A stretch of DNA of 61,870 nt, filler included, from Candidatus Tectimicrobiota bacterium (GCA_016193065.1; 8 parts of 8 records of this genome joined end to end with filler, not necessarily neighbours in it), one strand, 5' to 3'; positions 1 to 36,820 are shown, counted from the first letter of the whole stretch. Numbers and translations are program-made. Notes: generated by a model not told the origin, from the letters alone.

Positions 1-1439
1 GGGCTGTGGAGCTGATCTCCAAATTTCCGCTTCACTTCCCGCAGAAGCTCTTGCGGAGTCTCTACGGCAACAGGGAACTCACTGCGCCAGTCCCACGGCT
101 TACACGCGTCGATGATCGCTCGAGAGTTGAACCACTTCTCCTTATTTGGACCCGGACGAATGGCCGGGTCCAAGGGACCGCTCAAGCAGTGGGTCAGGAT
201 TTCAATGGCGTTCTGCGGATCGCTCCGCGTACCCAATGCCCAGAGAACCTCGTCGTTGTCATAGATATCGATATCGTCGTCCACGACAATCGTATAACGG
301 CCCATATATGCCCCCGCCCCGCACTGTGCGAGCACCCGGGCGGCCTGGCGGGAATGCCCCGCGTATCGCTGACGTATGGCAATGATGCTCAACATGGTTT
401 CCGCGGCCGCATCGTGGAAGCGAATCGCTTTCACATCAGGCACACCCGCTTTTTCCAGTTGCTCCAGGACCACGGCTTCACGCAGCATGGATGAGAACAC
501 CAGCGGCGCAACGGAGGGCTTCAGGGACGGCACGCCGAGGATGATCGGATCGTTTCGATACATGAGCGAAGTGACTTTAATGGTGGAGACGAGCCGGCTG
601 CTGCTCGCATAATAGCCGTGCCACTCGCCGAAGGGTCCTTCGGGCCGCTCGTCCTCAGGGGAAGAAATCCCTTCGATGACAATTTCCGAGGTGGCCGGGA
701 TCGGCAACCCGGTGTGCGGGGCTTGGATCACCTCGATCGGCTCTCCGCGAACTCCGCCTGCCCAATTATATTCAGAGACCCCGTAGGGCAAACTCGCTGA
801 GCCGGCCAGCAGGAGCAGCGGATCATGGCCGAACGACACGGCAACACGCATGGACTCACCCCTGGCGAACAACTGGTCCCTATGAATTCGGGCGTGATGG
901 CTGGGCGATACATGAAAACTCAGCGTCTTCTCATCGTGAATCATGATCCGATAGGTCCCCAGGTTCACCCAACCGGATTCCGGATCTCGCGTGACGGTAA
1001 CGCTGCCTGTGCCGATGTACCGGCCGCCGTCCTGCGTATGATATTTCGGGGCCGGCAGAGAGAACATGTCGATGTCTTTGCCTTCCCGAATATTTTGCAG
1101 GACAGGCCCATCAGATACAATCTCCGGCGCCAGCGAGGGCAGCGAATTTATTTTTTCGCGCAATTTGTAAGAAAACTCGGTGCGCTCGATTCCAGGGTCA
1201 AAATCCAAGGTCATGGCCACGCGGGGCAGCGTTGCCAGTGGATCCAGGAGAACGCGGTAGCCTTTCGGATACCCAACGATCTCATCGCAAAGGAGCGCCC
1301 ATCGTGTCTCCTTCTTGTTTCGCGCCACCATTTCAGAAAGTGCGGACATCTCCATGTCCCAGTGCACTCCGTTGACCCGGCGAAGCTCGTCGAGCTGTTG
1401 AGCATGCATCATCCATTCTCGAAGATCTTTGTGCGGCAT
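1..1439 (-). CDS. UbiD-family (prFMN-dependent) decarboxylase, runs off left edge (missed by the ORF track because no stop is in the window)
   Basis: Manual translation of segments from ATG 1439: MPHKDLREWM..., internal PEGPFGEWHGYYAS (UbiD EGPF motif), C-terminal NSRAIIDACKPWDWR. Confidence 0.88.
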   Translation of the reverse strand, partial: MPHKDLREWMMHAQQLDELRRVNGVHWDMEMSALSEMVARNKKETRWALLCDEIVGYPKGYRVLLDPLATLPRVAMTLDFDPGIERTEFSYKLREKINSLPSLAPEIVSDGPVLQNIREGKDIDMFSLPAPKYHTQDGGRYIGTGSVTVTRDPESGWVNLGTYRIMIHDEKTLSFHVSPSHHARIHRDQLFARGESMRVAVSFGHDPLLLLAGSASLPYGVSEYNWAGGVRGEPIEVIQAPHTGLPIPATSEIVIEGISSPEDERPEGPFGEWHGYYASSSRLVSTIKVTSLMYRNDPIILGVPSLKPSVAPLVFSSMLREAVVLEQLEKAGVPDVKAIRFHDAAAETMLSIIAIRQRYAGHSRQAARVLAQCGAGAYMGRYTIVVDDDIDIYDNDEVLWALGTRSDPQNAIEILTHCLSGPLDPAIRPGPNKEKWFNSRAIIDACKPWDWRSEFPVAVETPQELLREVKRKFGDQLHS

Positions 1440-1644: not shown

Positions 1645-3420
1645 TCAGCTAACGCTCATACTGAGACCAAGCCGCCGCACGACCAAAGCCACCCCGACCG
1701 CCAGGACTGTCACAATGAGCCCCAGGATAGCGGCGCTCTCTATATTGCCGGCCGCCGAGAACTCAAACATCAGCAGCGATAGAGTCCTGCTTGACGGAGT
1801 GACCAGCAGGACGGTCGTGCTGATGTCACGAACAGCTCCAATGAAGGTGACTGCGAACAGGCTCACGAGGGTTGGAGCAATGAGCGGCAGCATGATCCGG
1901 CGATAGGTCCTAAACCAGCTGGCTCCACATACCCGCGAAGAAAATTCAAGCTCCTGAGATATTTGGAGGAATGCGACGCTGGAAAGATTCACGCCCAGCG
2001 GGAGCTCCTTGATAAATAGAGCGAGCAATAAGGCCCCGATGTTGCCGTAGAGGAGTCCCAGCACTGGCATGGAAAGCAGCAACCACAACAATCCGATGCC
2101 CAGCAACATCCCCGGAATGGCCCACGGCAGCCACGTCATCAATCCGATCAACTTGCGGCCGGTCAGATTCGACCGTGCCAGCACGTAGCCCAGAACCGAG
2201 TAAAAAACCAATCCGAGTATCGACGTGCTCAAGCTCAGGACCAGCGTGTTCCTCACGGCAAGACTGAAAACGGGGCTTTCAAGTACGCGTCGCCAGTGGT
2301 CCAGAGTGAACGGATGACTGATCCCAAAAAAGCCGAAGAGCCGCATGAAAGATCCGAGCACCAAGACCGTGACAGGCAATACAACACCGATTCCAATATA
2401 CGCAAACAGCGCGGCCGAAGCAGCGTACCGCCAACGTCCGGTCAGCAACGGCCGCATTGACATACCTCGACCCGTCACGGTCGCGTAGTTGCGGGAAGAG
2501 ACGATCCGTTGGTACAAAAGGGCCAGGAGACATAAGACGCCCAGGATAAGAGTGCTGAGGGCCATTGCCTGAGGGATCTGGGGGGGCTGATAATTAATCA
2601 GATCATAGATCCGCGTAGCGTACACGTAAATGCCTGAGCGCGAGCCCAGGAGCTGCTCGACCTCAAACGCTTCCAGGCTCCGGATCAGGCCGGCGAGTAC
2701 CGCGGTCAGGCTGGCGGGGAGAATCAGAGGAAAAGTGATCCGCCGCAGGGTCTGCCAGTTTTTGGCCCCACACGTGCGCGATACCTCTTCCATGGAGGCG
2801 TCCATGATTCTAAAAGCCGGGGCCAGGAGCATCGTCATAACCGGTACGGTGGCGATGCTCATATGAACCCACAAGATGCCGACTACGGACTGAATATTCA
2901 ATGGCCCAAGCTGCCAGGGCAACTTCTTCAGAAAGATATTGATCAGGCCGCTGTTGGGATCCAGCAAAAGGACCCAACCCAGCGTGATCGGCAAAGCGGG
3001 AAGGAAGAAGGCCGTCCACAGAGCCAGCTCGATCACGGAACGGCCAGGGATCTGAGCGCGAATTAACAACCAGGAAATCAGAAAGGCGATCGCGACCGCC
3101 AGCGGTGCTCGAACGGACAGGATAAGGCTGTACGTCAGCGATGACAATGTCCGCGAGCTCCCAAAGATCGCATCGCTCCAGCCGCTCAGCCCGAAGGTCC
3201 ATGGCTGGCTTGGTTGGGCAACGTTGAATGAGTTGACCACAACAAAGGCGATTGGGAGAACTGTAATAGCGGCAACGCCGATCACCAACGCGATTCCCAG
3301 CCACCGATCCCGCGTGTGCCGCGCCAACAATTGCGGCCGCTCTTCCAACGGGAATCTCCCCTCGACCGCGCTCAACCTCCCCGACTGTCTATCAGCCACT
3401 GGACCCTTTCTACCAACCAC
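1645..3420 (-). CDS. ABC transporter permease, FbpB/ThiP-like with duplicated membrane domain
   Basis: 591 aa hydrophobic; two EAA-like loops (MDASMEEVSRTCGA, SQELEFSSRVCGA). Confidence 0.88.
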   Translation of the reverse strand: MVGRKGPVADRQSGRLSAVEGRFPLEERPQLLARHTRDRWLGIALVIGVAAITVLPIAFVVVNSFNVAQPSQPWTFGLSGWSDAIFGSSRTLSSLTYSLILSVRAPLAVAIAFLISWLLIRAQIPGRSVIELALWTAFFLPALPITLGWVLLLDPNSGLINIFLKKLPWQLGPLNIQSVVGILWVHMSIATVPVMTMLLAPAFRIMDASMEEVSRTCGAKNWQTLRRITFPLILPASLTAVLAGLIRSLEAFEVEQLLGSRSGIYVYATRIYDLINYQPPQIPQAMALSTLILGVLCLLALLYQRIVSSRNYATVTGRGMSMRPLLTGRWRYAASAALFAYIGIGVVLPVTVLVLGSFMRLFGFFGISHPFTLDHWRRVLESPVFSLAVRNTLVLSLSTSILGLVFYSVLGYVLARSNLTGRKLIGLMTWLPWAIPGMLLGIGLLWLLLSMPVLGLLYGNIGALLLALFIKELPLGVNLSSVAFLQISQELEFSSRVCGASWFRTYRRIMLPLIAPTLVSLFAVTFIGAVRDISTTVLLVTPSSRTLSLLMFEFSAAGNIESAAILGLIVTVLAVGVALVVRRLGLSMSVS

Positions 3421-3538: not shown

Positions 3539-4628
3539 TCAGCGGCCGAGGGCTTGTTCAATCTGCTTGCGCATCTTGGGTGCTATGTTGACGTAGTAGT
3601 CCTCTTCATACTGGTTGCGGTACTTGGTTTTCGCCTTCGGGATGATATACTGCGGAATCGTAGGGACGACAACGTCGGTACGCCGGCTCGGTTCCAACGA
3701 AATCGCCGTATAGATTTCCTGCCCCCGCTTGGACATGAACCAGTTCACAAATACCGCCGCCGCATTCGGATGGGGCGCGTTCGCAACGATCTTCGGCACG
3801 GCGCTCCCGCCGCTGACGCTCAGCACGCCGTCCGTCGGGAAGACTCGTTCCAGAGGAAACCCTTCTTTCCGGAACGCTTCCGCGTGCGCGGGTATCACGG
3901 CCAGCGCGATCGGTTGACTTCCTTGAGCCATCAACCGCACAACCTCCCGCGCGTCGCGCGTTAACACGAGATCTTGTCCCTTATAGAGAGCTTTCAGGTA
4001 CTCGGGACCGAAATCCTCGAGCAAGGCACGAGCCGTCGCTCCGCCGGCCCCCACCGTCACTTCCTGGGCCACAATCTTCCCCTTGTACTCCGGCTTCAGC
4101 AGGTCCTTCCACGAAGTGATCTTCTTGGGATCGATAACCCGCGTGTTGACCATAAGGTCAATGTGCACCCACTCGGAAACCATCGGCATGTACTGCTGGG
4201 CCTTATCTGCCCACTTGATCCCTCCCTCCCGCCATTTGGATGAATCAGTCACATCGGCGAGCGCAAGCTTGGGTCGAACCGGCGCCAGTAGGCCTTTCGG
4301 ATACAGATCAAGAAATTCCGTAACACCTGAGATGAGGATGTTGGTTGTGTTCTTTCCCGCTGCGGATTCCCGTTCGATCCGGAGCTGAGCAGGACCGGTC
4401 GGCTCGGCTGTGAAGTCGAGCCGGATGCCGAATTCTTCCTGCGGGAATATGACCCGGAAGAATGATGCGGACGCTCCCTTCTTTTTTCGCTGCCTGGACC
4501 ATGGCCGTCCAGCCGGCCTGGTCAGCCGCAAAAGGCTGGCTGGACGCCAAGAGCAATCCGGCAAATGTCATAACCAAAAGCCGGGCGATACTGCGAAGTG
4601 ATCGTGAAGAGTACGGACGCTTTAACAT
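3539..4628 (-). pseudogene. ABC substrate-binding protein (Fe3+/thiamine/polyamine cluster), split by a frameshift near 4445
   Basis: Signal peptide plus WTAMVQAAKKEGSVRI in ORF 4308..4679; body (QEEFGIRL...APHPNAAAVFVNWFMSKRGQ) in a different frame, ORF 3539..4564; start approximate. Confidence 0.75.
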
Positions 4629-4688: not shown

Positions 4689-5789
4689 TTACTCGTCAGA
4701 GGCCGGCCAAGTTTTCACCCTCTCTGCATTCATTCTGAGAACAACCTCTTGTCCACGTTCAAGGGCAGTATCTTTTGACGTATCAAAAAGCAATTGAGTC
4801 TCGCCCACTCTCAATACGTATTCGATGTGATCTCCACAATAGATTAGATCTTCGACGATCCCGCGGATCCCATTCTTCGAGATCGCATCCGAAAGCGGCT
4901 CGATAGTTACGTCCTCAGGACGAATTGCCAATCGAACTCGATTACCGTTCGGCGAAGAATCATGGTGCGCAGAAATGGAATCAGGCGTAACGTCAATCTG
5001 GAAAACCGTTCCATTCGCCGATCCCAGGACGACTGGCAGAGTAAGAACACGACCCACGAAACTTTGCACAAAAAAACTCGCGGGCGACTCGTAGACCTCC
5101 AATGGCGTGCCAAGCTGCTCGATTTTCCCCTGGCGCATAACTGCGACTCGATTGGCCAGTGACATTGCCTCGACCTGATCATGCGTGACGTAGAGAATTG
5201 TCATACCCAGGCGTCTCTGCAGCGCCTTCAGTTGTAGACGCATCTCAGCGCGGAGCTTCGCGTCAAGGTTACTCAAGGGCTCATCGAGCAGTAAGATGTC
5301 CGGTTCGTAGGCAAGAGCGCGGGCGAGCGCTACCCGTTGCTGCTGCCCGCCGCTTAGTTGGGTGGCTCGCCGCATCCCGAATTCGCCCAACCCGACCAGG
5401 TTTAAAACTTCTTCAACCTTCTCCTGAATCTTGGCCCGCGGGAAGCCGCGGATTTCGAGCGGGTAAGCAATGTTCTTCCCCACGGTCATATGAGGCCAGA
5501 TTGCATAGGACTGAAACACGAGGCCCAGATTGCGCTTCTCAGCCGAGACGAACACGCGCCGGCTGGCCGAAGCCACGGTCTTACCGCGGATCTTGATTTC
5601 GCCGCCCTCGGGCTCTTCAAGACCGGCTACCAAGCGCAACGTTGTACTCTTGCCACAGCCGCTGGGACCAAGCAGGGCCAATACTTCGCCTCGGCAAAGA
5701 TCGAAGCTCACGCTGTCGACGGCCATGACTCGCCCGTAACTTTTCTGAAGAGCACGGACTTCAAGAATTAGATCGTTCATAATATCCAA
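4689..5789 (-). CDS. ABC transporter ATP-binding protein (FbpC/PotA-like)
   Basis: Walker A GPSGCGKS, signature LSGGQQQR, Walker B LLLDEP, TOBE-like C-terminus. Confidence 0.93.
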   Translation of the reverse strand: MDIMNDLILEVRALQKSYGRVMAVDSVSFDLCRGEVLALLGPSGCGKSTTLRLVAGLEEPEGGEIKIRGKTVASASRRVFVSAEKRNLGLVFQSYAIWPHMTVGKNIAYPLEIRGFPRAKIQEKVEEVLNLVGLGEFGMRRATQLSGGQQQRVALARALAYEPDILLLDEPLSNLDAKLRAEMRLQLKALQRRLGMTILYVTHDQVEAMSLANRVAVMRQGKIEQLGTPLEVYESPASFFVQSFVGRVLTLPVVLGSANGTVFQIDVTPDSISAHHDSSPNGNRVRLAIRPEDVTIEPLSDAISKNGIRGIVEDLIYCGDHIEYVLRVGETQLLFDTSKDTALERGQEVVLRMNAERVKTWPASDE

Positions 5790-5999: not shown

Positions 6000-7340
6000 T
6001 TAAATCACTTCCTTGTGCTTGTCGAGCCAGTCCCTCGGTTCCCGGGCGTAATCTTGCCAGTAGTCCCCCGGCACACTAATTCCTGGGACGGGGGGGATCC
6101 ACTCCTCGCGGAGGATTTCCTTGGGATCGCCGTACTTGGCGGCCAAGGCCACTACCTCCGGATCGTCCAGCGCCGTCAAGTGCCCGTTATCGACCACTTT
6201 GATTCTCTTTCCGTCGCGGCAAATAATCTCGTAAGTCGGGAACAGAAGGTGCACGTGCATGTGCCCGTAGGGATGCTTTTTTTCTTCCGCCCAATTCTCT
6301 GAAGGCCCGTACAGCACGGTCCCGATACCAATGTGGATTATGCCCGATCGGAGCCTCTCCGAGAGAGCACCGGCGCCCGATAGCATAAACGCGTTCGAGG
6401 GCCGCCTCATCTTTGGGTTCGTTCCAATCGCCAACTCCCACCACCAGAAAAGGCCTTCGCTCGGGTATTCTGGGTAACGGATTTTTTTTCCAATATCAAG
6501 AAGCTCCCGCCAAGCATCACCGTACTTGCCACCCTCCTCTATTCGAACAGCCTTGCCCCCCTCAATGTGAAGCTTGATACGGGGAAACGGGCTGCTGATG
6601 TGATTGATCGTCCCCGCCACCACGCCGGAGGCGTCTTCACTGCTGCGCTCATAGGGCGGCGTTGGCCGGCCAAATAAGTGCCCGAAGAAGGGCTTTTCTT
6701 GGAAAAGGGGCAGGGATTTGGTTTGGGCGTATCGATTCAGGTCGTAAGACTCTTCAGGAAATGTGAAGGTAATATCCGTGCCTTCAGGGTCTGTCAGCCG
6801 AACTTTGCCTCCCCTGCCCTTGTTCCATATTTGATCCCATGCTCTATGATTTATTGCGTCCCATACCTCGTATGGAAAATCGGCCGCGGGAAATACCTCA
6901 CGGCTTGTCCAGGGTATGCCTCCATAGCGGAACTTTTTTGCCGGCAGGGAACCGCCCAAAGTGTGGATCAAAATGTCATATTCCCCTCGCTCAGCGACTT
7001 CCTCCGCCCACCTCACACGCTCGATCCACTGTCGAACCTCATTTACTTCGGGAACACCCGGACAGTTATGCATAAACCCCAGCAACTCGTCTGTGTAGTT
7101 CAAAGGACGATCCGGGCCCATGTCAACGCTGATCAGATCCACCTTGCCCGGAAGCTTTCGGATGGCTTGCACAATGGCATCAACAACTGCCTGATCATAA
7201 AAACTGTTCACCACAAGAAGAGCACGTTCCCCGGGCTTCATACCGTAACCCGCAGGTAACGATCCCCCCACAAACGAGCCCACGACCAAGCGCCTAGCTG
7301 TCTCTAATAAACGGGCGTCATAAGGGATCGGGGAACACAT
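6000..7340 (-). CDS. M29 leucyl-aminopeptidase-fold / NicX-like metalloenzyme
   Basis: VRLTDPEGTDITF, ELAIGTNP, HIGIG and HMHVH motifs resemble the C-terminal metal domain of this fold. Confidence 0.55.
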   Translation of the reverse strand: MCSPIPYDARLLETARRLVVGSFVGGSLPAGYGMKPGERALLVVNSFYDQAVVDAIVQAIRKLPGKVDLISVDMGPDRPLNYTDELLGFMHNCPGVPEVNEVRQWIERVRWAEEVAERGEYDILIHTLGGSLPAKKFRYGGIPWTSREVFPAADFPYEVWDAINHRAWDQIWNKGRGGKVRLTDPEGTDITFTFPEESYDLNRYAQTKSLPLFQEKPFFGHLFGRPTPPYERSSEDASGVVAGTINHISSPFPRIKLHIEGGKAVRIEEGGKYGDAWRELLDIGKKIRYPEYPSEGLFWWWELAIGTNPKMRRPSNAFMLSGAGALSERLRSGIIHIGIGTVLYGPSENWAEEKKHPYGHMHVHLLFPTYEIICRDGKRIKVVDNGHLTALDDPEVVALAAKYGDPKEILREEWIPPVPGISVPGDYWQDYAREPRDWLDKHKEVI

Positions 7341-7398
7341 ATTTGTTTGTTCCTTCCTAAATTTTGAAAATTACGTGCTCACGGCAGCTCAAGGGCGA

Positions 7399-8988
7399 CT
7401 ATCCGGAGGCTCGCACACGTCGCGCGCTTTCCTCAACCGACTCGGCAGAAGCGATCATTTGAGAACTCTCCTCCTCTCCCCAGCACAGAGGGTCCGGCAG
7501 CCTAAGCACACCCCCCCGGTAGTAAATCCTTTCCCAGGAGGCTTGTAGAACCTCGGGTCCGAATTTCCTCAGCACCGCGCTCCGCAGATAGTCTCGGGTG
7601 TCACCCGGACCGTGCATCATTGCCGTAGCAATATCTCGCCGTAGGTCTGTTGCCTTACAACCAGCCAGCCGCTTCTCAGCATACTCGAGTGATGATTCGA
7701 GATTATGCAAACAGTCACAGCTGTCCAAGTCCACTTCCTCGCCTGTGTACCAGCGCACTCCTTCATCAATCAGCGAAAACTGGTTGCATACTGTAAGCGC
7801 TTCCTCTCCCTGGGCTCCATACTCTTCCAACAGGGCAAGTTTTGTGACCCAATCTATCCCGTGAACTAATGAATCGAAATCCCCGGTTGCCAATTGCGTG
7901 ATTACCGTGGAAATCAACTCAACGGCTGCGTGATCTTCCGGCGAGCCCTCTCGGGCCACCAACTGCCCGATCTTCTCTAGATAGAAGCCCCCCAGTATGT
8001 CCCGGAGGGCGTGAGCCGTGCGTCCGTTTTCAAGCTGAACCTGCCAGTCCCTTGGCTCCAAGCCAAATACCAGCTGAACACCCGATCGTAGCGGGTGCGC
8101 CAGCTGAGGTGCTCCATCCAGCAGTCCTCGCTGGAAAGCGGCTACGATCAAAGTCTGCAATGCGTCCACAATATAAAGTTGAAACGGACTTCTCAGCGCC
8201 TCCAGGTTGATATCGTGCAGCCGCCAATAGGAGACGTCGTCCGCATGCGGCTCGTCACGTTCGTTGACCAGACCACGCCAGAACGTGGTGTCCAGGGTAG
8301 ATACAACGCGGACAAAGCAGATACGTGGGGAAATGGCGAACCTGAGTTCCTGACCGAAAAGTTCAGCATCCCGCCAGTCAACCTCCCATTGCGGCCCCGA
8401 TTTTCGAACGGGCACCATGTTTCCGCTGCCGATGAGCGGCAGTCGGGCGATCGTGTATGGCACCAGGGCTCGGCGTACCTGTTCCCAGTTCCGCAAGTTG
8501 CAAATACTGCGGGGCAGCAGAAGATTGTGATGAGTCCCGTAGGCCACTGAGCGAATGAGGCCGTCTTCAACTGTCGTGGACAGGTTGTTCTTGTAAGCCG
8601 CCACGGGTTTTTCGAACCGCTTGCTCGCCGCCTTGGCGGCAAGATAAACCAACACCTCACCTGCCAGAGAATATCGCACCAGATCCCGCGGATTTCTGAC
8701 CACAGGACTCGAAACCTCAAAGTGCACGGCGTCGTCGTACAATCGCATGCCGTTATACGCAACAGGGAATGGACCTCCGTCTGCCGCCCAGTTGGAGGCG
8801 ATCGACCTCTCATAGGCAAGATTACCCGCTTCATCCGTAACAGCCCATTTCGCGGGCGCGGTGTACCCTGCATCATGCAGGCAGTTCAGAGCCGTGTCGA
8901 TGAGCAGACGCCTGGGCACTTGATCCGCCGGGCAGGTGTTCATGGCGTACTCTTGTTCAAGTCCCCTGGCCACGGAGCGAACAATCAC
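7399..8988 (-). CDS. Divergent Pup deamidase/ligase family protein (Dop-like)
   Basis: GLEQEY (GxExE), NGMRLYDDAVHFEVSSP, YKNN, YGTHHN, RGLVNERDEPHAD...RLH, IDWVTK, DTRDYLR. Confidence 0.82.
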   Translation of the reverse strand: MIVRSVARGLEQEYAMNTCPADQVPRRLLIDTALNCLHDAGYTAPAKWAVTDEAGNLAYERSIASNWAADGGPFPVAYNGMRLYDDAVHFEVSSPVVRNPRDLVRYSLAGEVLVYLAAKAASKRFEKPVAAYKNNLSTTVEDGLIRSVAYGTHHNLLLPRSICNLRNWEQVRRALVPYTIARLPLIGSGNMVPVRKSGPQWEVDWRDAELFGQELRFAISPRICFVRVVSTLDTTFWRGLVNERDEPHADDVSYWRLHDINLEALRSPFQLYIVDALQTLIVAAFQRGLLDGAPQLAHPLRSGVQLVFGLEPRDWQVQLENGRTAHALRDILGGFYLEKIGQLVAREGSPEDHAAVELISTVITQLATGDFDSLVHGIDWVTKLALLEEYGAQGEEALTVCNQFSLIDEGVRWYTGEEVDLDSCDCLHNLESSLEYAEKRLAGCKATDLRRDIATAMMHGPGDTRDYLRSAVLRKFGPEVLQASWERIYYRGGVLRLPDPLCWGEEESSQMIASAESVEESARRVRASG

Positions 8989-10400
8989 GCGGGCCTCCCT
9001 CCCATATCGAACGAGATGTGTTTCATAAGCTCAGTTCTTGTCTCTTTGTTCCATCCATCCAGCTTCAGAAGCTCGTATTTTCTGCCTCGGACCGTCACGG
9101 AATCCCAATCAAGTTGCTCCAGCTCCACGCCGAACTGCTCGGCCAGCTCCCGACGGAGAGCGGCTCGCGAGTCAGGCGGCGGGTTCACCATGGCCTGGCG
9201 CACTTCCTCCTCTGACGTAAGCCTTTCTATCGGGAGCTCCGCCTCAAGTTCAGCGAAAGTTGAATCCGTCAACGACTTGAACTGGAAATCCAGCGTTTCT
9301 TTTTCCTCCCAAGTTCCTTGCCGCAGTTGAAAGTATTCATTGCCATTGAGCTCGATCACGTCCAGTTTGACGGCCCAATCCAGCCGTCGAGACAGCCGGG
9401 TGATGGCGCTCGTCGCGAGACAGTCCAGGGTATCTTCGAGCAGATTCAACAGAAGGCTATCAGACCGGGCGATCCCAAGCTTCTGCGCAAGCCGCTGGAT
9501 TGGATCCATGTAGAACTCTCGCAAAAACTCCACCGCGTCCATCCTGCTCCCGTTCTCAAGAGTGATCACCCAGTTCCCTGAAACGTTTGAGGAGATTTTC
9601 TGTGCTTCTTCCACGGGATCCTGAATCCGGGGGACGCTGTGAATCAATCCCTGTTCAAAGCAATTGATGATCGCTGCGGTGACGCCGTTTCGGAGGAACG
9701 TCGTACCATCGCATCGGGCCCCCTCTCCGCTACACAGATGAAGGCGAGCGAATCCATTGCCGGTGTTCGATCGCTTCCCCAGGGCAATGAACGGGAAGTC
9801 TCCAGTGACCTTGTCAGAAACTATTTTCCGCATAAAGAATTGGCGTGGCGACAACACGTATCGCCCTTGATAGTAGCCGCCGGTCCCACAGAGCAGTGGA
9901 CGAACCACCAGGAATGGGATTAAGCATTCTACAAGTTGACTCAGGTGATCTTCCCGCACGAGGTAGGATTCATGCAGCCCCCTGGGGGCATGCGACGTTT
10001 TTCTTTTATCACTGTAGGTGATGCTGCTTTTGTAACAGTGGACTCCCAGGCGGGAACAGGTCTCAGCCGTGACAAGATCACATGCCCTCTCATAGGCAAC
10101 CAGCTCTCTGGCCGAAGAGCATTCCGGAGTGCACAGCTCAAGAAGATCATGCCCGGCCGGGTGATCGATATATCCCCTTCCCCCGTTCTTGAGGAAGTTG
10201 GATGCACCTCCCCGCAACGGGATCAGATAGCTGCTGTTCTGCCGGCTATCCCCGTCGCCTTGGAGGTACTTCATGAGCCGATTTGCATCTGTCCATCCTT
10301 CCTCACGGATTGGAAGCGCGTACTCCACCTCCACGCCTTGCCAGCGGTGATCCAACAAATTCTCTCTTGCTCCCAAAGCTCCCTCGCTCCCCTGAGTCAC
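8985..10400 (-). CDS. Divergent Pup ligase family protein (PafA-like)
   Basis: GTG 10400 after GGGAGG; GVEVEY, FLKNGGRGYID, ELCTPEC, GLHESY, RLH, LDWAVK, PPPDSRAALR, LDWD; 4-nt overlap with the Dop-like gene. Confidence 0.78.
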   Translation of the reverse strand: MTQGSEGALGARENLLDHRWQGVEVEYALPIREEGWTDANRLMKYLQGDGDSRQNSSYLIPLRGGASNFLKNGGRGYIDHPAGHDLLELCTPECSSARELVAYERACDLVTAETCSRLGVHCYKSSITYSDKRKTSHAPRGLHESYLVREDHLSQLVECLIPFLVVRPLLCGTGGYYQGRYVLSPRQFFMRKIVSDKVTGDFPFIALGKRSNTGNGFARLHLCSGEGARCDGTTFLRNGVTAAIINCFEQGLIHSVPRIQDPVEEAQKISSNVSGNWVITLENGSRMDAVEFLREFYMDPIQRLAQKLGIARSDSLLLNLLEDTLDCLATSAITRLSRRLDWAVKLDVIELNGNEYFQLRQGTWEEKETLDFQFKSLTDSTFAELEAELPIERLTSEEEVRQAMVNPPPDSRAALRRELAEQFGVELEQLDWDSVTVRGRKYELLKLDGWNKETRTELMKHISFDMGGRPA

Positions 10401-10410
10401 TACCCCTCCC

Positions 10411-10724
10411 TCAAGCTGGCGGCTCGTTCCGGCATTTGAGGCGGGGTACGACCTCTTTGTGGAACAGCTCCAGCTGCCGGAAGTAATTGTTCGCGTGGAT
10501 CGTGAGGATGATGCGCTCCAGCCCGGCAATTGGCAAAAGGCCGTTGATCTTATCAGCCAGCATCTCCGGAGTGCCGACCGCTCCATACTTGTACCGCTCC
10601 TCTTGAGTCGGATCACCCTGGGCGCGGTAGATCTTCCGCCCCTCCCGTTCAATAACCCAGCGGGAGTCGCAGGAGGCGGCGTCGGCCATCGCCTCCTCGA
10701 GGTCGGGGTTGATGTTCACCTCAA
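10411..10724 (-). CDS. LLM-class flavin-dependent oxidoreductase, C-terminal fragment (contig edge)
   Basis: AVGTPEMLADKI...QLELFHKEVVPRL is typical of LLM C-termini. Confidence 0.65.
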
Positions 10725-26713: not shown

Positions 26714-28699
26714 ATGGAGCAAGAGATTCTTAAGAACCGCCGGGCGTTTTCTTTTTACAACCGCAGGCGTCTGGACCAGCTGTTCTCAGCCCTTCAGGAG
26801 CAAGACGCATGCATCTTGGGGGCCCTCCCTTTTCTCCTTCAGGTAAACATAAAGAAGCTGCCCGGCTACATAGAGGCCAAGGAGGTCCCCTGCGGCACCT
26901 ACGACTTTTCCTGGACAAAAGAGGCCCAAACGGCCGTCAGGAAACTATTCCCCGACTTCCCCCTAGAGCGCCTCAGCTCCGCCCACCTCTTTCCGCGGCG
27001 CTCAGCAATCGTTATGCTGGCCCTGATTGGCAGCGCCGGGTCCATCGCCCAAACCGAAAAATCGGACCTGGACTTCTGGGTTTGCATTGAGGAGCGCTCC
27101 CTGGGTGCTGCAGCCCTGGCTCTCCTGAAAGAAAGGCTCAAGGCACTCGAGCAATGGATCTGGCAGACGAGCCAAACGGAGATGCACTTCTTCATCACGG
27201 ACATCGAAAAAGTGCAAAAAAACGATTTTGGAGAGGCGGGCCTGGAGAGCTCGGGAACCGCCCTGGGCAAGCTTCTCAAAGAGGAGTTTTACCGCACCTC
27301 CATTGTGCTTGCCGGAAAGACCCCCCTGTGGTGGATCACTCCCACCCGGGCGGATGACGAGACCTACGAAGAGTTCAAACAGGCTGTGCGCGCCTCCAAT
27401 GAGCTCGACCCTCAGGACTATGTGGATCTCGGCAACCTCTCCGAGATCACCTGGGACGAATTCTTCGGAGCCTCTCTGTGGCAAATGAACAAAGCCATGG
27501 CCAGCCCCTTTAAGTCGGTTCTCAAAATGGCACTTCTAGATGCCTGCATGGACCCGGAGAATGAGTCCGGTCTGCTTTGTGACGATCTCAAGCAGAGTGT
27601 CTTCTCCCTGAGCACCTCGGACCGGCATTTAGACCCCTACATTCTCCTCTTCGATCACATCCTGGAATACAATCAAAAAAAGCAGCGCCCCGAAGTCGTG
27701 GACCTGCTGCGGACCTGCTTTTACATCAAAGTGGGCGTTCGGCTATCCCCCCTGGATTTCTCCAAAAAACTCTCAAGCCGGAAAAGGGAGATCCTGGCCG
27801 AGTATGTGAAATCCTGGGGCTGGAGCCTGGAGCGAGTCGAGACTTTGAACGACTACGCCAACTGGCCCTTTGAAAAGACCCTGGCTCTGGGCAAGGAGGT
27901 GCACCAGTTCCTGCTGTCCACCTACCAGACCCTGTCGGACCGGCTCAAGGAAAAACCGGATCTTACTGCCAAGATCAGCGCCACGGATCTGACGCTACTG
28001 GGTCGCAAACTGGCCAGCCTCTACTCCAAAAAGCCCGGGAAAGTCGAAGTGATCAAGCAGGCAGTGGAAGAAGGGCTGGAATTAGAGGCCCTGACCTTGT
28101 ATACTAGCTACGAAAGTGACTCGAAACGGGGGGAATGGCGAGTGTACCGCGGAATGGTGCCCCGGGAAGAACTCTTGGATGAACGAGGAAAGGGGAAGCT
28201 CCTCAGGCGCTCCAGGAATCTCCTGGAAATCCTGATCTGGCTGGTGCACAACCGCCTTTATACACCTGCCACCACCCTCCACATGATTCCCAATGGGAGC
28301 CCGATCACCTTGAACGATCTCAAGGAGATCCTGCGGGAAATGTCCGACTTCTTTCCCCCGATTGACCTCTCCCAGTTAGCCAAGAAAGACCTCCTTAGCG
28401 AAAGCCGGATCGACAAGGTGATGGTGGTGGCAAATCTCTTAGCTCAGCGCTGGGCGACCCACCTCTCGGACCTTGGCATCCTGTACCGGACCTCTTGGGG
28501 GGAACAGTTCTGCGAGTCCTACGCTTCCCAGGCGGGAATCCAAAAAGCACAGGAATACGTGGTCGAGGCGGCCAGGAAGCAGCCGGCATCCACCTGCTAC
28601 CGGCTCTGGGTCCCCAGAGGGGAAGGCTACAAAACGCTGGCGCCTAGCCTGGCGGAGCGTCTCAAGAAACGATTACCAAAGGCCTACGCTGCCAATTAA
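26714..28699 (+). CDS. cyaA: Class I adenylate cyclase
   Basis: LPFLL, GSAGSIAQTEKSDLDFWVC, LLKEEFYRT, GKTPLWW, GASLWQ, SPFKSVLK. Confidence 0.88.
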   Translation: MEQEILKNRRAFSFYNRRRLDQLFSALQEQDACILGALPFLLQVNIKKLPGYIEAKEVPCGTYDFSWTKEAQTAVRKLFPDFPLERLSSAHLFPRRSAIVMLALIGSAGSIAQTEKSDLDFWVCIEERSLGAAALALLKERLKALEQWIWQTSQTEMHFFITDIEKVQKNDFGEAGLESSGTALGKLLKEEFYRTSIVLAGKTPLWWITPTRADDETYEEFKQAVRASNELDPQDYVDLGNLSEITWDEFFGASLWQMNKAMASPFKSVLKMALLDACMDPENESGLLCDDLKQSVFSLSTSDRHLDPYILLFDHILEYNQKKQRPEVVDLLRTCFYIKVGVRLSPLDFSKKLSSRKREILAEYVKSWGWSLERVETLNDYANWPFEKTLALGKEVHQFLLSTYQTLSDRLKEKPDLTAKISATDLTLLGRKLASLYSKKPGKVEVIKQAVEEGLELEALTLYTSYESDSKRGEWRVYRGMVPREELLDERGKGKLLRRSRNLLEILIWLVHNRLYTPATTLHMIPNGSPITLNDLKEILREMSDFFPPIDLSQLAKKDLLSESRIDKVMVVANLLAQRWATHLSDLGILYRTSWGEQFCESYASQAGIQKAQEYVVEAARKQPASTCYRLWVPRGEGYKTLAPSLAERLKKRLPKAYAAN

Positions 28700-35428: not shown

Positions 35429-36820
35429 ATGTCATCCGCATTTCGTGACTTTCTGCGCCTGCTGGAAGGGGAAGGACAGCTCTTGCGAATTCAAGAGAAC
35501 GTCAATCCCCGCTTTGAGCTCTCCCAAATCCTCAAAGAAGTCGACCGCAGGGGAGGGCCGGCGCTCCTGTTCGAGCGGGTCTCGGGCTGTTCCTTTCCCG
35601 TGGCGGGAAATCTCCTGGGGACCCGGCATCGGCTGGCCCTGCTCTTCGGCACTTCCGAGGAACACATTGTGGAAGAATATGAGCGGCGCAGAAGCCGCCT
35701 CATTCCGCCGGTGGTGGCTTCCTATGCACCTTGCCAGGAGGTCGTGGTCCAGGAGGAAATGGATATTCTAAAGACGCTTCCCATCCCGACCTACCACGAG
35801 AAGGACGGCGGCCCGTACATCACCTGCGGAGTTTTATTCGCCAAGGATCCCCTGACGGGACAGCGGGGAGTGGGGCTCCACCGCCTGCACGTGAAGGGGA
35901 AGAACCGGCTGGGAGTCCACCTGAGCAACCCGCCGATCTCCCAGTTCCAGGCCAACGCCGAAGCCCTGGGAAATCCCCTCGAAGTCGCCATCGCCCTGGG
36001 GGTGGACCCCGTGATCCTGATGGCCTCCATTGTCCGCATGCCCACCGGCGACAAACTCGCGCTGGCCGGCGGCCTGCGCGGGGAAGCCGTGGAAGTGGTT
36101 CGCGGGACCCGGGTAGGGGTTGAAGTTCCGGCCCGAGCCGAAGCGGTTCTGGAGGGGAAGATCCTACCCGGAGTCCGGGAAGACGAGGGCCCCTTTGGAG
36201 AGACCTCGGGCTATTACTTTCGGGATCGCAGCCACGTAATCGAAGTGACCGCAATCACCCACCGGGACCGTCCCATCAGCCAGGCCCTGCATCCGATGAC
36301 CAACGAGGTGGTTATGCTGGCCGGAGCTTCCGCGGAGGCGGAGCTCCTGCGTTTTTTGCGCGGAGAGGGCTATCAGGTCCGCCACCTCCATCTCACGGGC
36401 GGGACGAGCCGGCCCCACGCCCTGATCTCTCTCCGGAAGAAGCACGACGGCGAGCCCAAACAGCTTCTCTACCTGCTCCTTTCTCACTCTCCTTGGATCA
36501 AGCATGCCGCGGTCCTGGACGACGACGTGGATCTTCACGATCCGGATGATGTGGAGTGGGCTCTATCCACGCGGGTGCAAGGAGATAGAGACTTGGTCGT
36601 CCTCTCGGGGTTGCCCGGCCGCAGCATCGATCCCTCGACCCGCGATGGATTTGGGTCCAAGGTGGGTGTGGATGCCACCGTTCCGATCCAGGAGCGGGAA
36701 CGCTACGTCCGTCCCCGAGTTCCGGCCGACGTTGCCCAGAAAGCCCGGGAATTTGTCTCGCGCTACTTGAAGGAAGGAGAGCACCCGCCCCACGGCCATG
36801 GTCACGGTCACGGCCACTAA
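35429..36820 (+). CDS. UbiD-family decarboxylase with a His/Gly tail
   Basis: FRDFLRLLE, HEKDGGPYIT, EGPFGETSGYY, VEWALSTR, KVGVDAT. Confidence 0.92.
   Translation: MSSAFRDFLRLLEGEGQLLRIQENVNPRFELSQILKEVDRRGGPALLFERVSGCSFPVAGNLLGTRHRLALLFGTSEEHIVEEYERRRSRLIPPVVASYAPCQEVVVQEEMDILKTLPIPTYHEKDGGPYITCGVLFAKDPLTGQRGVGLHRLHVKGKNRLGVHLSNPPISQFQANAEALGNPLEVAIALGVDPVILMASIVRMPTGDKLALAGGLRGEAVEVVRGTRVGVEVPARAEAVLEGKILPGVREDEGPFGETSGYYFRDRSHVIEVTAITHRDRPISQALHPMTNEVVMLAGASAEAELLRFLRGEGYQVRHLHLTGGTSRPHALISLRKKHDGEPKQLLYLLLSHSPWIKHAAVLDDDVDLHDPDDVEWALSTRVQGDRDLVVLSGLPGRSIDPSTRDGFGSKVGVDATVPIQERERYVRPRVPADVAQKAREFVSRYLKEGEHPPHGHGHGHGH

Follow-up and report, generated by a model that had tools for sequence, protein, structure and literature searches.

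The closest described relatives of the locus reported here are the Pup-type tagging systems of bacteria. In the actinobacterial Pup-proteasome system (Pup, PafA, Dop, Mpa/ARC, and PrcAB), as here, two paralogous enzymes of the PF03136 family, with the glutamine synthetase (GS) fold, accompany a small, probably disordered protein that ends in Gly-Glu or Gly-Gln. Corynebacterium glutamicum has canonical Pup, PafA, Dop, and ARC without a 20S proteasome. UBact, another Pup-like small protein ending in G[EQ], lies beside PafA/Dop homologues in Gram-negative bacteria, outside the Actinobacteria; Lehmann et al. are said to have described it in 2017 with the C-terminus R[TS]G[EQ] and with loci that include proteasome subunits. 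Here we describe a locus in a 61,870-nt stretch of DNA, filler included (hereafter the window), from Candidatus Tectimicrobiota bacterium (GCA_016193065.1), in which two adjacent genes of the Pup-ligase superfamily, A and B, overlap by 4 nt. The pair belongs to a conserved branch of two paralogues separate from PafA and Dop, whose members, mostly archaeal, usually lie beside a tag gene of their own. We consider it probable (about 0.6) that the locus encodes a Pup-like, probably proteasome-independent tagging module with a partner of the M29/NicX fold, and that the adjacent tag gene has been deleted in this haplotype. The accessible parts of two papers present pupylation as a trait of bacteria, chiefly Actinobacteria and Nitrospirae (PMC7947786, PMC12288473), and the text available of one of them, a 2020 survey of PafA and Dop, deals with bacterial phyla only and does not contain the word "archaea" (PMC7947786). 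In a literature search confined to main texts, we came across no description of this branch or of its tag.

Both proteins matched the Pup_ligase model PF03136 (198.1 bits for A and 175.7 bits for B; cut-off, 25), as a preliminary description of the locus had expected, and the 4-nt overlap that it gave for the pair was exact. Scores for the equivalog models fell far below those needed, both for PafA (TIGR03686; 142.1 bits for A and 97.4 for B, with 551.3 required) and for Dop (TIGR03688; 160.5 and 157.7, with 492.3 required). The solved structures nearest to A and B were Dop (E 3.5e-32 and 7.2e-31, respectively), followed by PafA (E 3e-17 and 8.6e-11). Close relatives of A are few, seven having 99 to 35% identity and the remainder 30% or less; B belongs to a family of relatives of about 530 aa. 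In an 82-row tree, which drew a long-branch warning, the A clade and the B clade were each supported at 100 in the Shimodaira-Hasegawa-like approximate likelihood ratio test (SH-aLRT) and joined each other, apart from a clade that held both PafA and Dop. A tree pairing A with PafA and B with Dop was rejected (difference in log likelihood 72.6; approximately unbiased test, p-AU 1.7e-7) in a constrained comparison of 39 rows that used LG+G4, a quick search, and groups chosen once the first tree was known. Sequence comparison thus places A and B in a conserved two-paralogue branch outside PafA and Dop; grouping inside the canonical clades was part of what the preliminary description had named as counting against it. 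Because the tree sets the pair apart and the constrained tree was rejected, the terms "PafA-like" and "Dop-like" used in that description are apt for the length of a loop (44 and 64 residues) but not as statements of orthology.

We compared active sites in AcelDop numbering, for which the accessible part of the source gives Glu8, Glu10, Tyr92, Glu99, His155, and His241 as Mg ligands, plus Asp94 and Arg227 (PMC8599861). Window B retains all eight of these catalytic and metal residues (E8, E10, Y92, D94, E99, H155, R227, and H241), as do 29 of 29 B rows, a further likeness to the actinobacterial system. Window A retains seven (E8, E10, Y92, D94, E99, H155, and H241); R227 is replaced by Gly and D228 by Lys. 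Across the A clade, the Asp94 position holds D, C, or H (Cys in loci of the ANME-1 type and His in one Bathyarchaeia group), the Arg227 position R, G, I, V, A, or M, and the His241 position H or Q. After 12 of the 82 rows that lacked the second motif had been dropped, the spacer between GxExEY and NGxRxYxD, a loop compared by length alone, measured 36-37 residues in the PafA clade and 65-73 in the Dop clade; it has 44 residues in window A, within an A-clade range of 39-52, and 64 in window B, within a B-clade range of 45-66. Since it keeps all Dop catalytic and metal residues together with a loop of Dop length, B is the likelier candidate for a deamidase and tag-removing enzyme. By the same analogy A is the likelier candidate ligase, or possibly a noncanonical partner, because it combines a short, PafA-like loop with an altered phosphate-binding position.

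A profile of the B family searched against one genome per prokaryote species returned 94 relatives, the best 80 of which were kept as loci. By their labels these 80 come mostly from archaeal metagenome-assembled genomes (MAGs) of Bathyarchaeia, Methanomethylicota, ANME-1/Methanophagales, Syntrophoarchaeum, and Alkanophaga, while a few bear bacterial labels. In 71 of the 80, B is immediately preceded by an A-type gene on its own strand. Of the nine loci without one, five are cut at most 400 nt upstream; the sequence upstream amounts to 1.9 kb in one and to 2.5 kb or more in three. Seven loci with less than 250 nt after B could not be evaluated for a tag. In 64 of the remaining 73, a small Lys-rich open reading frame (ORF) ending in G[EQ] stands beside the pair; 62 of these were found by regular expression, the other two being L019 and a cut copy in L073. 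The endings were ATSGE (38), APPGE (12), APPGQ (8), APSGE (2), ATSGQ (1), and ATAGE (1). As a rule the tag gene comes right after B; in L017 and L079 it lies 86-88 nt before A. A metagenome scan added eight loci, every one at 37% identity or less, and six of them have a tag. Window A groups beside the A protein of L079 (SH-aLRT 97), and window B falls inside the Bathyarchaeia/Methanomethylicota B group of the 82-row tree; by this placement the window pair is nested among tag-linked members. The label of an orphan pair with no tag, which the preliminary description had given this locus, does not hold for the family.

The tags are basic, Lys-rich, probably disordered proteins of 31-64 aa, commonly ending in ...K-K-x-H-x-E-[VI]-[VI]-A-P-P-G-[EQ]. 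The C-terminus of most lineages reads ...H-x-E-[VI]-[VI]-A-P-[PS]-G-[EQ], and that of ANME-1-type archaea reads ...YEIYATSGE. The ANME-1-type loci L021-L078 gave tags of 80-110 aa with an acidic N-terminus, ending ...KKIMPYEIYATSGE. No Pup model, nor any other model of NCBIfam or Pfam, matched the tags (E ≤ 0.1 and E ≤ 0.01). A profile built from 14 tags matched 151 proteins at E ≤ 10 in a protein collection; nearly all of the 120 listed are 30-64 aa long, and a longer bacterial type, with the ending ...KLKP[VI]H[QE]EIIAPPG[QE], accounts for at least 14 clusters among the matches listed. Unlike Pup, these tags end in PPG[EQ], PSGE, or TSGE rather than GG[EQ], and, compared with the motif reported for UBact, they carry A-P-[PS]-G-[EQ] or ATSGE. 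The neighbourhoods of homologues of A and B mostly show a tag of their own; consistent neighbourhoods of ubact or pup with proteasome genes were what the preliminary description had named as counting against it.

In 49 of the 80 loci, a 543-aa AAA ATPase precedes A. It matched PAN (4.4e-50) and, over positions 33-414 of 512, pup_AAA (4e-47), both below their cut-offs. In the archaeal loci this adjacent Mpa/PAN-like ATPase, which recalls the actinobacterial system, would link the pair to unfolding and would thereby support a tagging role. In the ANME-1/Methanophagales-type loci L021-L078 (for example L041:8109-11941), the operon reads AAA ATPase (Mpa/PAN-like), A, B, tag. One ANME-1-type genome (G005) also has a third gene of the Pup_ligase family away from the operon, a 506-aa open frame at C14:2216-3400. 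Six Methanomethylicota-type loci (L004, L007, L008, L009, L016, and L029) share a conserved protein of 95-99 aa about 200-300 nt after the tag, which ends in EEKYEPPP, has a weak match of the Molydop_binding type (E 2.5e-7), and is followed by subunits of the 2-oxoacid:ferredoxin oxidoreductase type. Loci labelled Desulfobacteria (L035), Patescibacteria (L025), and Nitrosotalea (L054) are archaeal in type and in the tree, L035 and L054 being ANME-1-like and L025 Bathyarchaeia-like, which would reflect mis-binning or gene transfer.

The bacterial-type loci are built differently. The order M29-like gene, tag (ending APPGQ), A, B was found in four of four, two in MAGs labelled Thermodesulfobacteriota (L017) and "delta proteobacterium" (L079) and two on metagenome contigs (L085 and L086); in the window the order is A, B, M29-like. 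The M29-like gene adjoins the pair in all five bacterial-type loci, the window included, and a profile of its family matched only these among 88 loci. Surrounding L017 and L079 are TctCBA, a GntR/FCD regulator, an iron-containing alcohol dehydrogenase, an aldehyde dehydrogenase, CoA-transferases, a LUD-domain protein, and a UbiD to which the window UbiD (3..1439) is 43% identical in the case of L079; a LUD-domain protein and a second M29-like gene lie around L085. No AAA ATPase was seen among the annotated genes directly flanking the M29-like/tag/A/B run in L017 and L079. A search for the proteasome family found one 185-aa match in the genome of L017 (G001), which reads as HslV, none in that of L079 (G002), and two or three in each of three archaeal genomes; since G001 and G002 are MAGs, this does not prove that a 20S proteasome is absent from them. 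TIGR03689 gave only generic AAA matches below cut-off in five genomes, and its control matched 14 of 14 genomes, which makes the search uninformative. Across 401 genomes of the phylum of G001, an A-family profile found a strong A-type match (411 bits) in G001 alone; nine other genomes gave 131-207 bits and look like other Pup-ligase clades. With no Mpa/ARC-like ATPase adjacent and no 20S proteasome found in two relatives' genomes, the bacterial subtype is probably proteasome-independent. It is alike in this to C. glutamicum, which keeps tagging enzymes without a 20S proteasome, and the tag would therefore act in regulation or unfolding and not in proteasomal degradation; it is unlike C. glutamicum in having an M29/NicX-fold partner and no adjacent ATPase. 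Mostly archaeal hosts, and the lack of a 20S match in the two bacterial genomes searched, also set the branch apart from the actinobacterial system.

The M29-like gene of the window encodes a 446-aa protein that matched no Pfam model (E ≤ 0.01; PF02073 and the NicX model included) and no NCBIfam model, and a single-sequence search against Protein Data Bank sequences returned nothing significant. It has 384 representative relatives at E ≤ 0.001, with nearly invariant His, Asp, and Glu columns, and the family profile matched NicX (7cn3; E 0.0034). A structural model of high confidence (predicted local distance difference test score [pLDDT] 90.3) retrieved NicX, PepS, AmpS, and AmpT in Foldseek with E values of 1e-13 to 1e-11 and probability 1.0, at template modelling (TM) scores of 0.39-0.52 and 12-16% identity; the peptide-binding crocagin proteins CgnB and CgnE followed at E 3.5e-4 and 7.3e-4. 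A protein atlas placed a NicX-like cluster at rank 10 (score 0.92), which we treat as a lead only. The model thus indicates that the protein shares its fold with the M29 aminopeptidases PepS, AmpS, and AmpT and with the 2,5-dihydroxypyridine dioxygenase NicX, in agreement at the fold level with the preliminary description; it differs from both in forming a family of its own, and it may be a peptidase or an oxygenase. In PADLOC, no family matched A, B, the M29-like protein, or the L085 tag (E ≤ 0.01).

We then asked what has become of the tag gene in the window. Twelve sequencing runs hold part of the stretch, among which four groundwater runs from one study (X1-X4) contain 0.81-0.93 of its sampled words; the shares in X5-X12 are small (0.05-0.16), and we draw no conclusion on habitat from them. 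Run contigs were compared with window positions 9500-10724. A 3741-nt contig from X3 and a 2905-nt contig from X4 carry 183 nt in place of the 35 nt that the window has at 10371-10405, the junction of the LLM-type gene and gene A. Over gene A these sister contigs differ from the window at 4 of 871 nt (about 99.5% identity), and over the LLM-type (luciferase-like monooxygenase) gene on the other side at 43 of 319 nt (X3) and 36 of 186 nt (X4). Divergence thus jumps sharply at the junction, from about 0.5% in gene A to about 13% in the LLM part, which suggests recombination there. In the assembly graphs of X1 and X2, the unitig of gene A has a depth of 33.4 and 13.6, respectively, and the window form bridges the junction at 14.1 and 7.48; an alternative path, a 100-nt unitig with a depth of 10.1 and 6, leaves the window at 10370. 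Translated by hand, its 30-letter loose end reads Pro-Ser-Gly-Glu-stop, then 1 nt, then a GTG in the frame of A. A protein encoded on a 2905-nt contig (P0001) is 99% identical to A, and its N-terminus, MQQLSPHQGNEV..., is the loose-end DNA read in the frame of A; it matches ...SPHQGNEV.

At the window junction, Asp-Ser-Gly-Glu-Arg can be read in frame after the LLM stop, with neither a start codon nor a stop after Glu, and its Ser-Gly-Glu codons look like the remnant of a tag C-terminus. The simplest reading of these differences is that the sister strains have the order LLM, tag, A, B, M29-like and that the window haplotype has lost about 148 nt with most of the tag gene. If so, the window enzymes would use a tag gene elsewhere in the genome or would be recently orphaned. 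Orphan status is a property of this haplotype and of a short contig, not of the kind of system.

Modelled as a complex with the L085 tag, window B gave a score of 0.86, compared with 0.32 for the best control; 58 of 80 solved complexes and 2 of 110 mismatched pairs reach that mark. Contact agreement between runs was at least 88%, and the pLDDT of the partner was at least 58. In the model, tag residues 36-57 contact B residues 13, 86-89, and 153, which form the catalytic centre. The modelled tag is that of another organism, and because Dop-Pup complexes have been solved, the score may reflect memorised structures; it is a sign of likeness rather than of binding.

The preferred reading, then, is that A and B would together serve a conjugation system of the Pup-like kind, with a tag of its own and separate from the Pup of Actinobacteria. 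By analogy with PafA and Dop, ATP would serve to phosphorylate the side chain of the tag's C-terminal Glu, which would then be linked to an amine, in all probability that of a protein lysine, and tags ending in Gln would be deamidated first; A would be the likelier ligase and B the likelier deamidase and tag remover. The window would represent the bacterial subtype, in which the M29/NicX-fold protein is always adjacent. Of the two alternatives in the preliminary description, the one that fits best is a tagging system that had escaped recognition, works without a proteasome, and has the M29-like protein as its partner: relatives carry a tag gene that had gone unrecognised, the M29-like gene is adjacent in four bacterial-type loci and in the window, and one of the two bacterial genomes has an HslV-type protein only and the other none. 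For the other alternative, a module that glutamylates and deglutamylates small molecules, the evidence is that of gene neighbourhood and not direct.

Several observations weigh against this reading. No conjugate has ever been observed, and the tagging chemistry is drawn wholly from analogy. Three or four loci with room for it lack A, and nine with room have no adjacent tag, one of them being N-masked. In the 61.9-kb window, a regular-expression search of stop-to-stop frames ending in G[EQ] gave no plausible tag-like ORF, and a hidden Markov model of 55 tag C-termini (--max, E ≤ 10) gave no match; that a tag is encoded elsewhere in the genome is an assumption. The preliminary description was right in finding no such ORF in the gaps that it read, but the endings it had sought, GG[EQ] and R[TS]G[EQ], are not those of this tag family. 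Of the 183-nt insert, no more than the final four codons of a putative tag in the sister strains could be read, and no protein from the 2905-nt or the 3741-nt contig is among the 120 listed of the 151 matches to the 14-tag profile. As the four runs share one study, which may also have yielded the window itself, they are not independent. All bacterial-type loci lie among transport and catabolic genes, which would suit a small-molecule role as well. Gly at position 227 with Lys beside it is shared by window A and its five closest relatives. The B gene of L079 (G002:C47, 9965-11532) is split into two frames of 186 and 336 aa by a frameshift or an assembly error.

The strongest rival, which we nevertheless consider unlikely, turns the bacterial subtype into a form of carrier-peptide metabolism, the small peptide being a reusable handle rather than a degradation tag. 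A would join a small amine to the peptide through its C-terminal Glu side chain, the neighbours (the M29/NicX-fold protein, UbiD, the LLM-type enzyme, and others) would transform it, and B would release it. In LysW, also a small protein, an ATP-grasp enzyme joins the C-terminal Glu side chain to an amine in an ATP-dependent step, and the amine is later released. With an imported amine tethered to a Lys-rich G[EQ] peptide, the system would be a GS-fold counterpart of LysW-type chemistry that had arisen from protein tagging, a scenario to which we give equally little credence. The likeness to LysW-type amino-group carriers lies in the logic of joining and release and not in ancestry: the enzymes here have the GS fold, no sequence relationship is known, and the biosynthetic set of kinase, reductase, and aminotransferase is missing. 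The constant adjacency of the M29/NicX-fold gene in five of five bacterial-type loci speaks for such a role, as do the importers and catabolic genes around every one of them (in the window an importer of the amine/phosphonate type and UbiD), the lack of an AAA ATPase among the annotated direct flanks in L017 and L079, and the resemblance of the 446-aa fold to the peptide-binding CgnB and CgnE. However, the tag is homologous to archaeal tags that lie beside an Mpa/PAN-like unfoldase, the neighbours other than the M29-like gene vary between loci, no test that we ran indicated a small-molecule ligand, and the support consists of gene neighbourhood.

It is also improbable, if not much more so than the carrier scheme, that the deletion took the only tag gene and left A and B as functionless remnants that have not yet degraded in this haplotype. 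The tag-bearing form is present in all four runs and X1 and X2 are the only ones where the tag-less form spans the junction, the Ser-Gly-Glu coding stretch persists without start or stop, and the contrast between 13% divergence in the LLM part (43 of 319 nt) and 0.5% in gene A suggests a breakpoint of recombination or replacement at the junction. Both genes, however, are free of frameshifts and internal stops and keep their conserved residues, the tag-less path is at least as deep as the tag-end path in X1 (14.1 vs. 10.1) and X2 (7.48 vs. 6), and a second copy of the tag may exist elsewhere in the genome. Least credible is the main idea of the preliminary description, a tag-free pair of gamma-glutamyl ligase and amidase that would act on free glutamate and a small amine imported by the adjacent ABC (ATP-binding cassette) system: the haplotype has no adjacent tag gene while both frames are intact, R227 has become Gly with a neighbouring Lys in window A and its five closest relatives, and the importer is nearest to 2-aminoethylphosphonate and polyamine models (below cut-offs), but sister strains about 99.5% identical in gene A carry the insert, Arg227 is also absent from tag-linked A genes of Methanomethylicota and Bathyarchaeia and its loss is therefore no marker of tag loss, the pair is nested in tag-linked clades, and the model puts a relative's tag into the groove of window B with its C-terminus at the catalytic residues, as a likeness only.

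Features of the window are collected below. The window consists of eight contigs joined by seven linkers of the form N...TTAATTAATTAA...N (0 expected in shuffles), and statements about "the contig" that reach beyond one piece are therefore invalid. The locus lies on the first contig (1-10724), which ends 324 nt upstream of the start codon of A.

Features of the window, in nucleotides from its first position
Feature	Position	Strand	Basis or remark
Gene A, Pup-ligase superfamily, divergent paralogue, 471 aa	8985..10400	-	GTG at 10400, stop 8985-8987; PF03136
Gene B, Pup-ligase superfamily, canonical active site, loop of Dop length, 529 aa	7399..8988	-	GTG at 8988; PF03136
Junction of LLM stop and gene A	10371..10405	-	35 nt vs. 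183 nt in sister contigs; Ser-Gly-Glu codons 10387-10395
LLM/FMN-monooxygenase-type gene, C-terminal 102 codons, cut by contig end	10411..10724	-	ORF listing; weak TIGR03860
M29/NicX-fold metalloenzyme-like protein, 446 aa	6000..7340	-	profile and model fold matches
ABC importer ATPase with TOBE domain	4689..5789	-	PF00005, PF08402; nearest models PhnT2 and PotA, below cut-offs
Solute-binding protein of the importer	3539..4564	-	SBP_bac_8, 6, 11, and 1; weak PhnS2 and PotD matches
Fused two-domain ABC permease	1645..3420	-	two BPD_transp_1 stretches; PhnU2-like, 138 bits vs. cut-off 593
UbiD-family decarboxylase, runs off window start	3..1439	-	UbiD, UbiD_C, UbiD_N
Artificial contig joiner, N run with TTAATTAATTAA	10725..10824	none	beyond it, another contig
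Six further linker cores	23583, 34643, 40033, 50111, 56115, 58849		

All genes of the locus lie on the minus strand, in the order truncated LLM-type gene, A, B, 446-aa gene, ABC ATPase, solute-binding protein, fused permease, and UbiD. The LLM stop (10411-10413) is separated by 10 nt from the GTG of A, and the stop of B by 58 nt from the 446-aa gene; the preliminary description had both distances exactly, together with the importer and UbiD. The sole family match of the LLM-type fragment was a weak one to NtaA/DmoA (TIGR03860; E 0.0039, profile positions 350-407 of 422). UbiD scored 250.4 against a UbiD subfamily cut-off of 244.85, with the phenylphosphate carboxylase beta subunit and VdcC as the nearest named models. 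The models nearest to the importer, all below their cut-offs, were those of 2-aminoethylphosphonate and polyamine systems. When the window was searched by tblastn, the queries being two archaeal 20S subunits, an HslV, and an ARC-like ATPase, no match had an E value below 0.38. The preliminary description's finding of no proteasome or ATPase gene on the contig stands for the window as far as it goes, but it is weak evidence because the contig ends so close upstream of A and the whole genome was not covered. The other contigs of the window carry bacterial genes for a PilQ-type secretin, AroB, biotin carboxylase, a class-I adenylate cyclase, and glycine cleavage proteins. The adenylate cyclase (661 aa, 26714-28699) is of the enterobacterial type, in a groundwater bacterium, and a second UbiD-family decarboxylase lies on a different contig from the locus (35429-36820).

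The pair and its relatives make up a separate branch of the Pup-ligase superfamily with its own duplicated pair of enzymes and its own tag family, widespread in MAGs labelled Bathyarchaeia, Methanomethylicota, and ANME-1. In a rarer bacterial subtype, to which the window would belong, an M29/NicX-fold partner takes the place of the unfoldase, inside clusters for transport and catabolism. One groundwater community contains two nearly identical haplotypes, one with the tag gene and one that apparently lacks it, and this natural pair may offer a handle on the function of the tag. The branch would provide a second, independent origin of a ligase/amidase pair for comparison with PafA and Dop, and it is a testable candidate for protein tagging in archaea.

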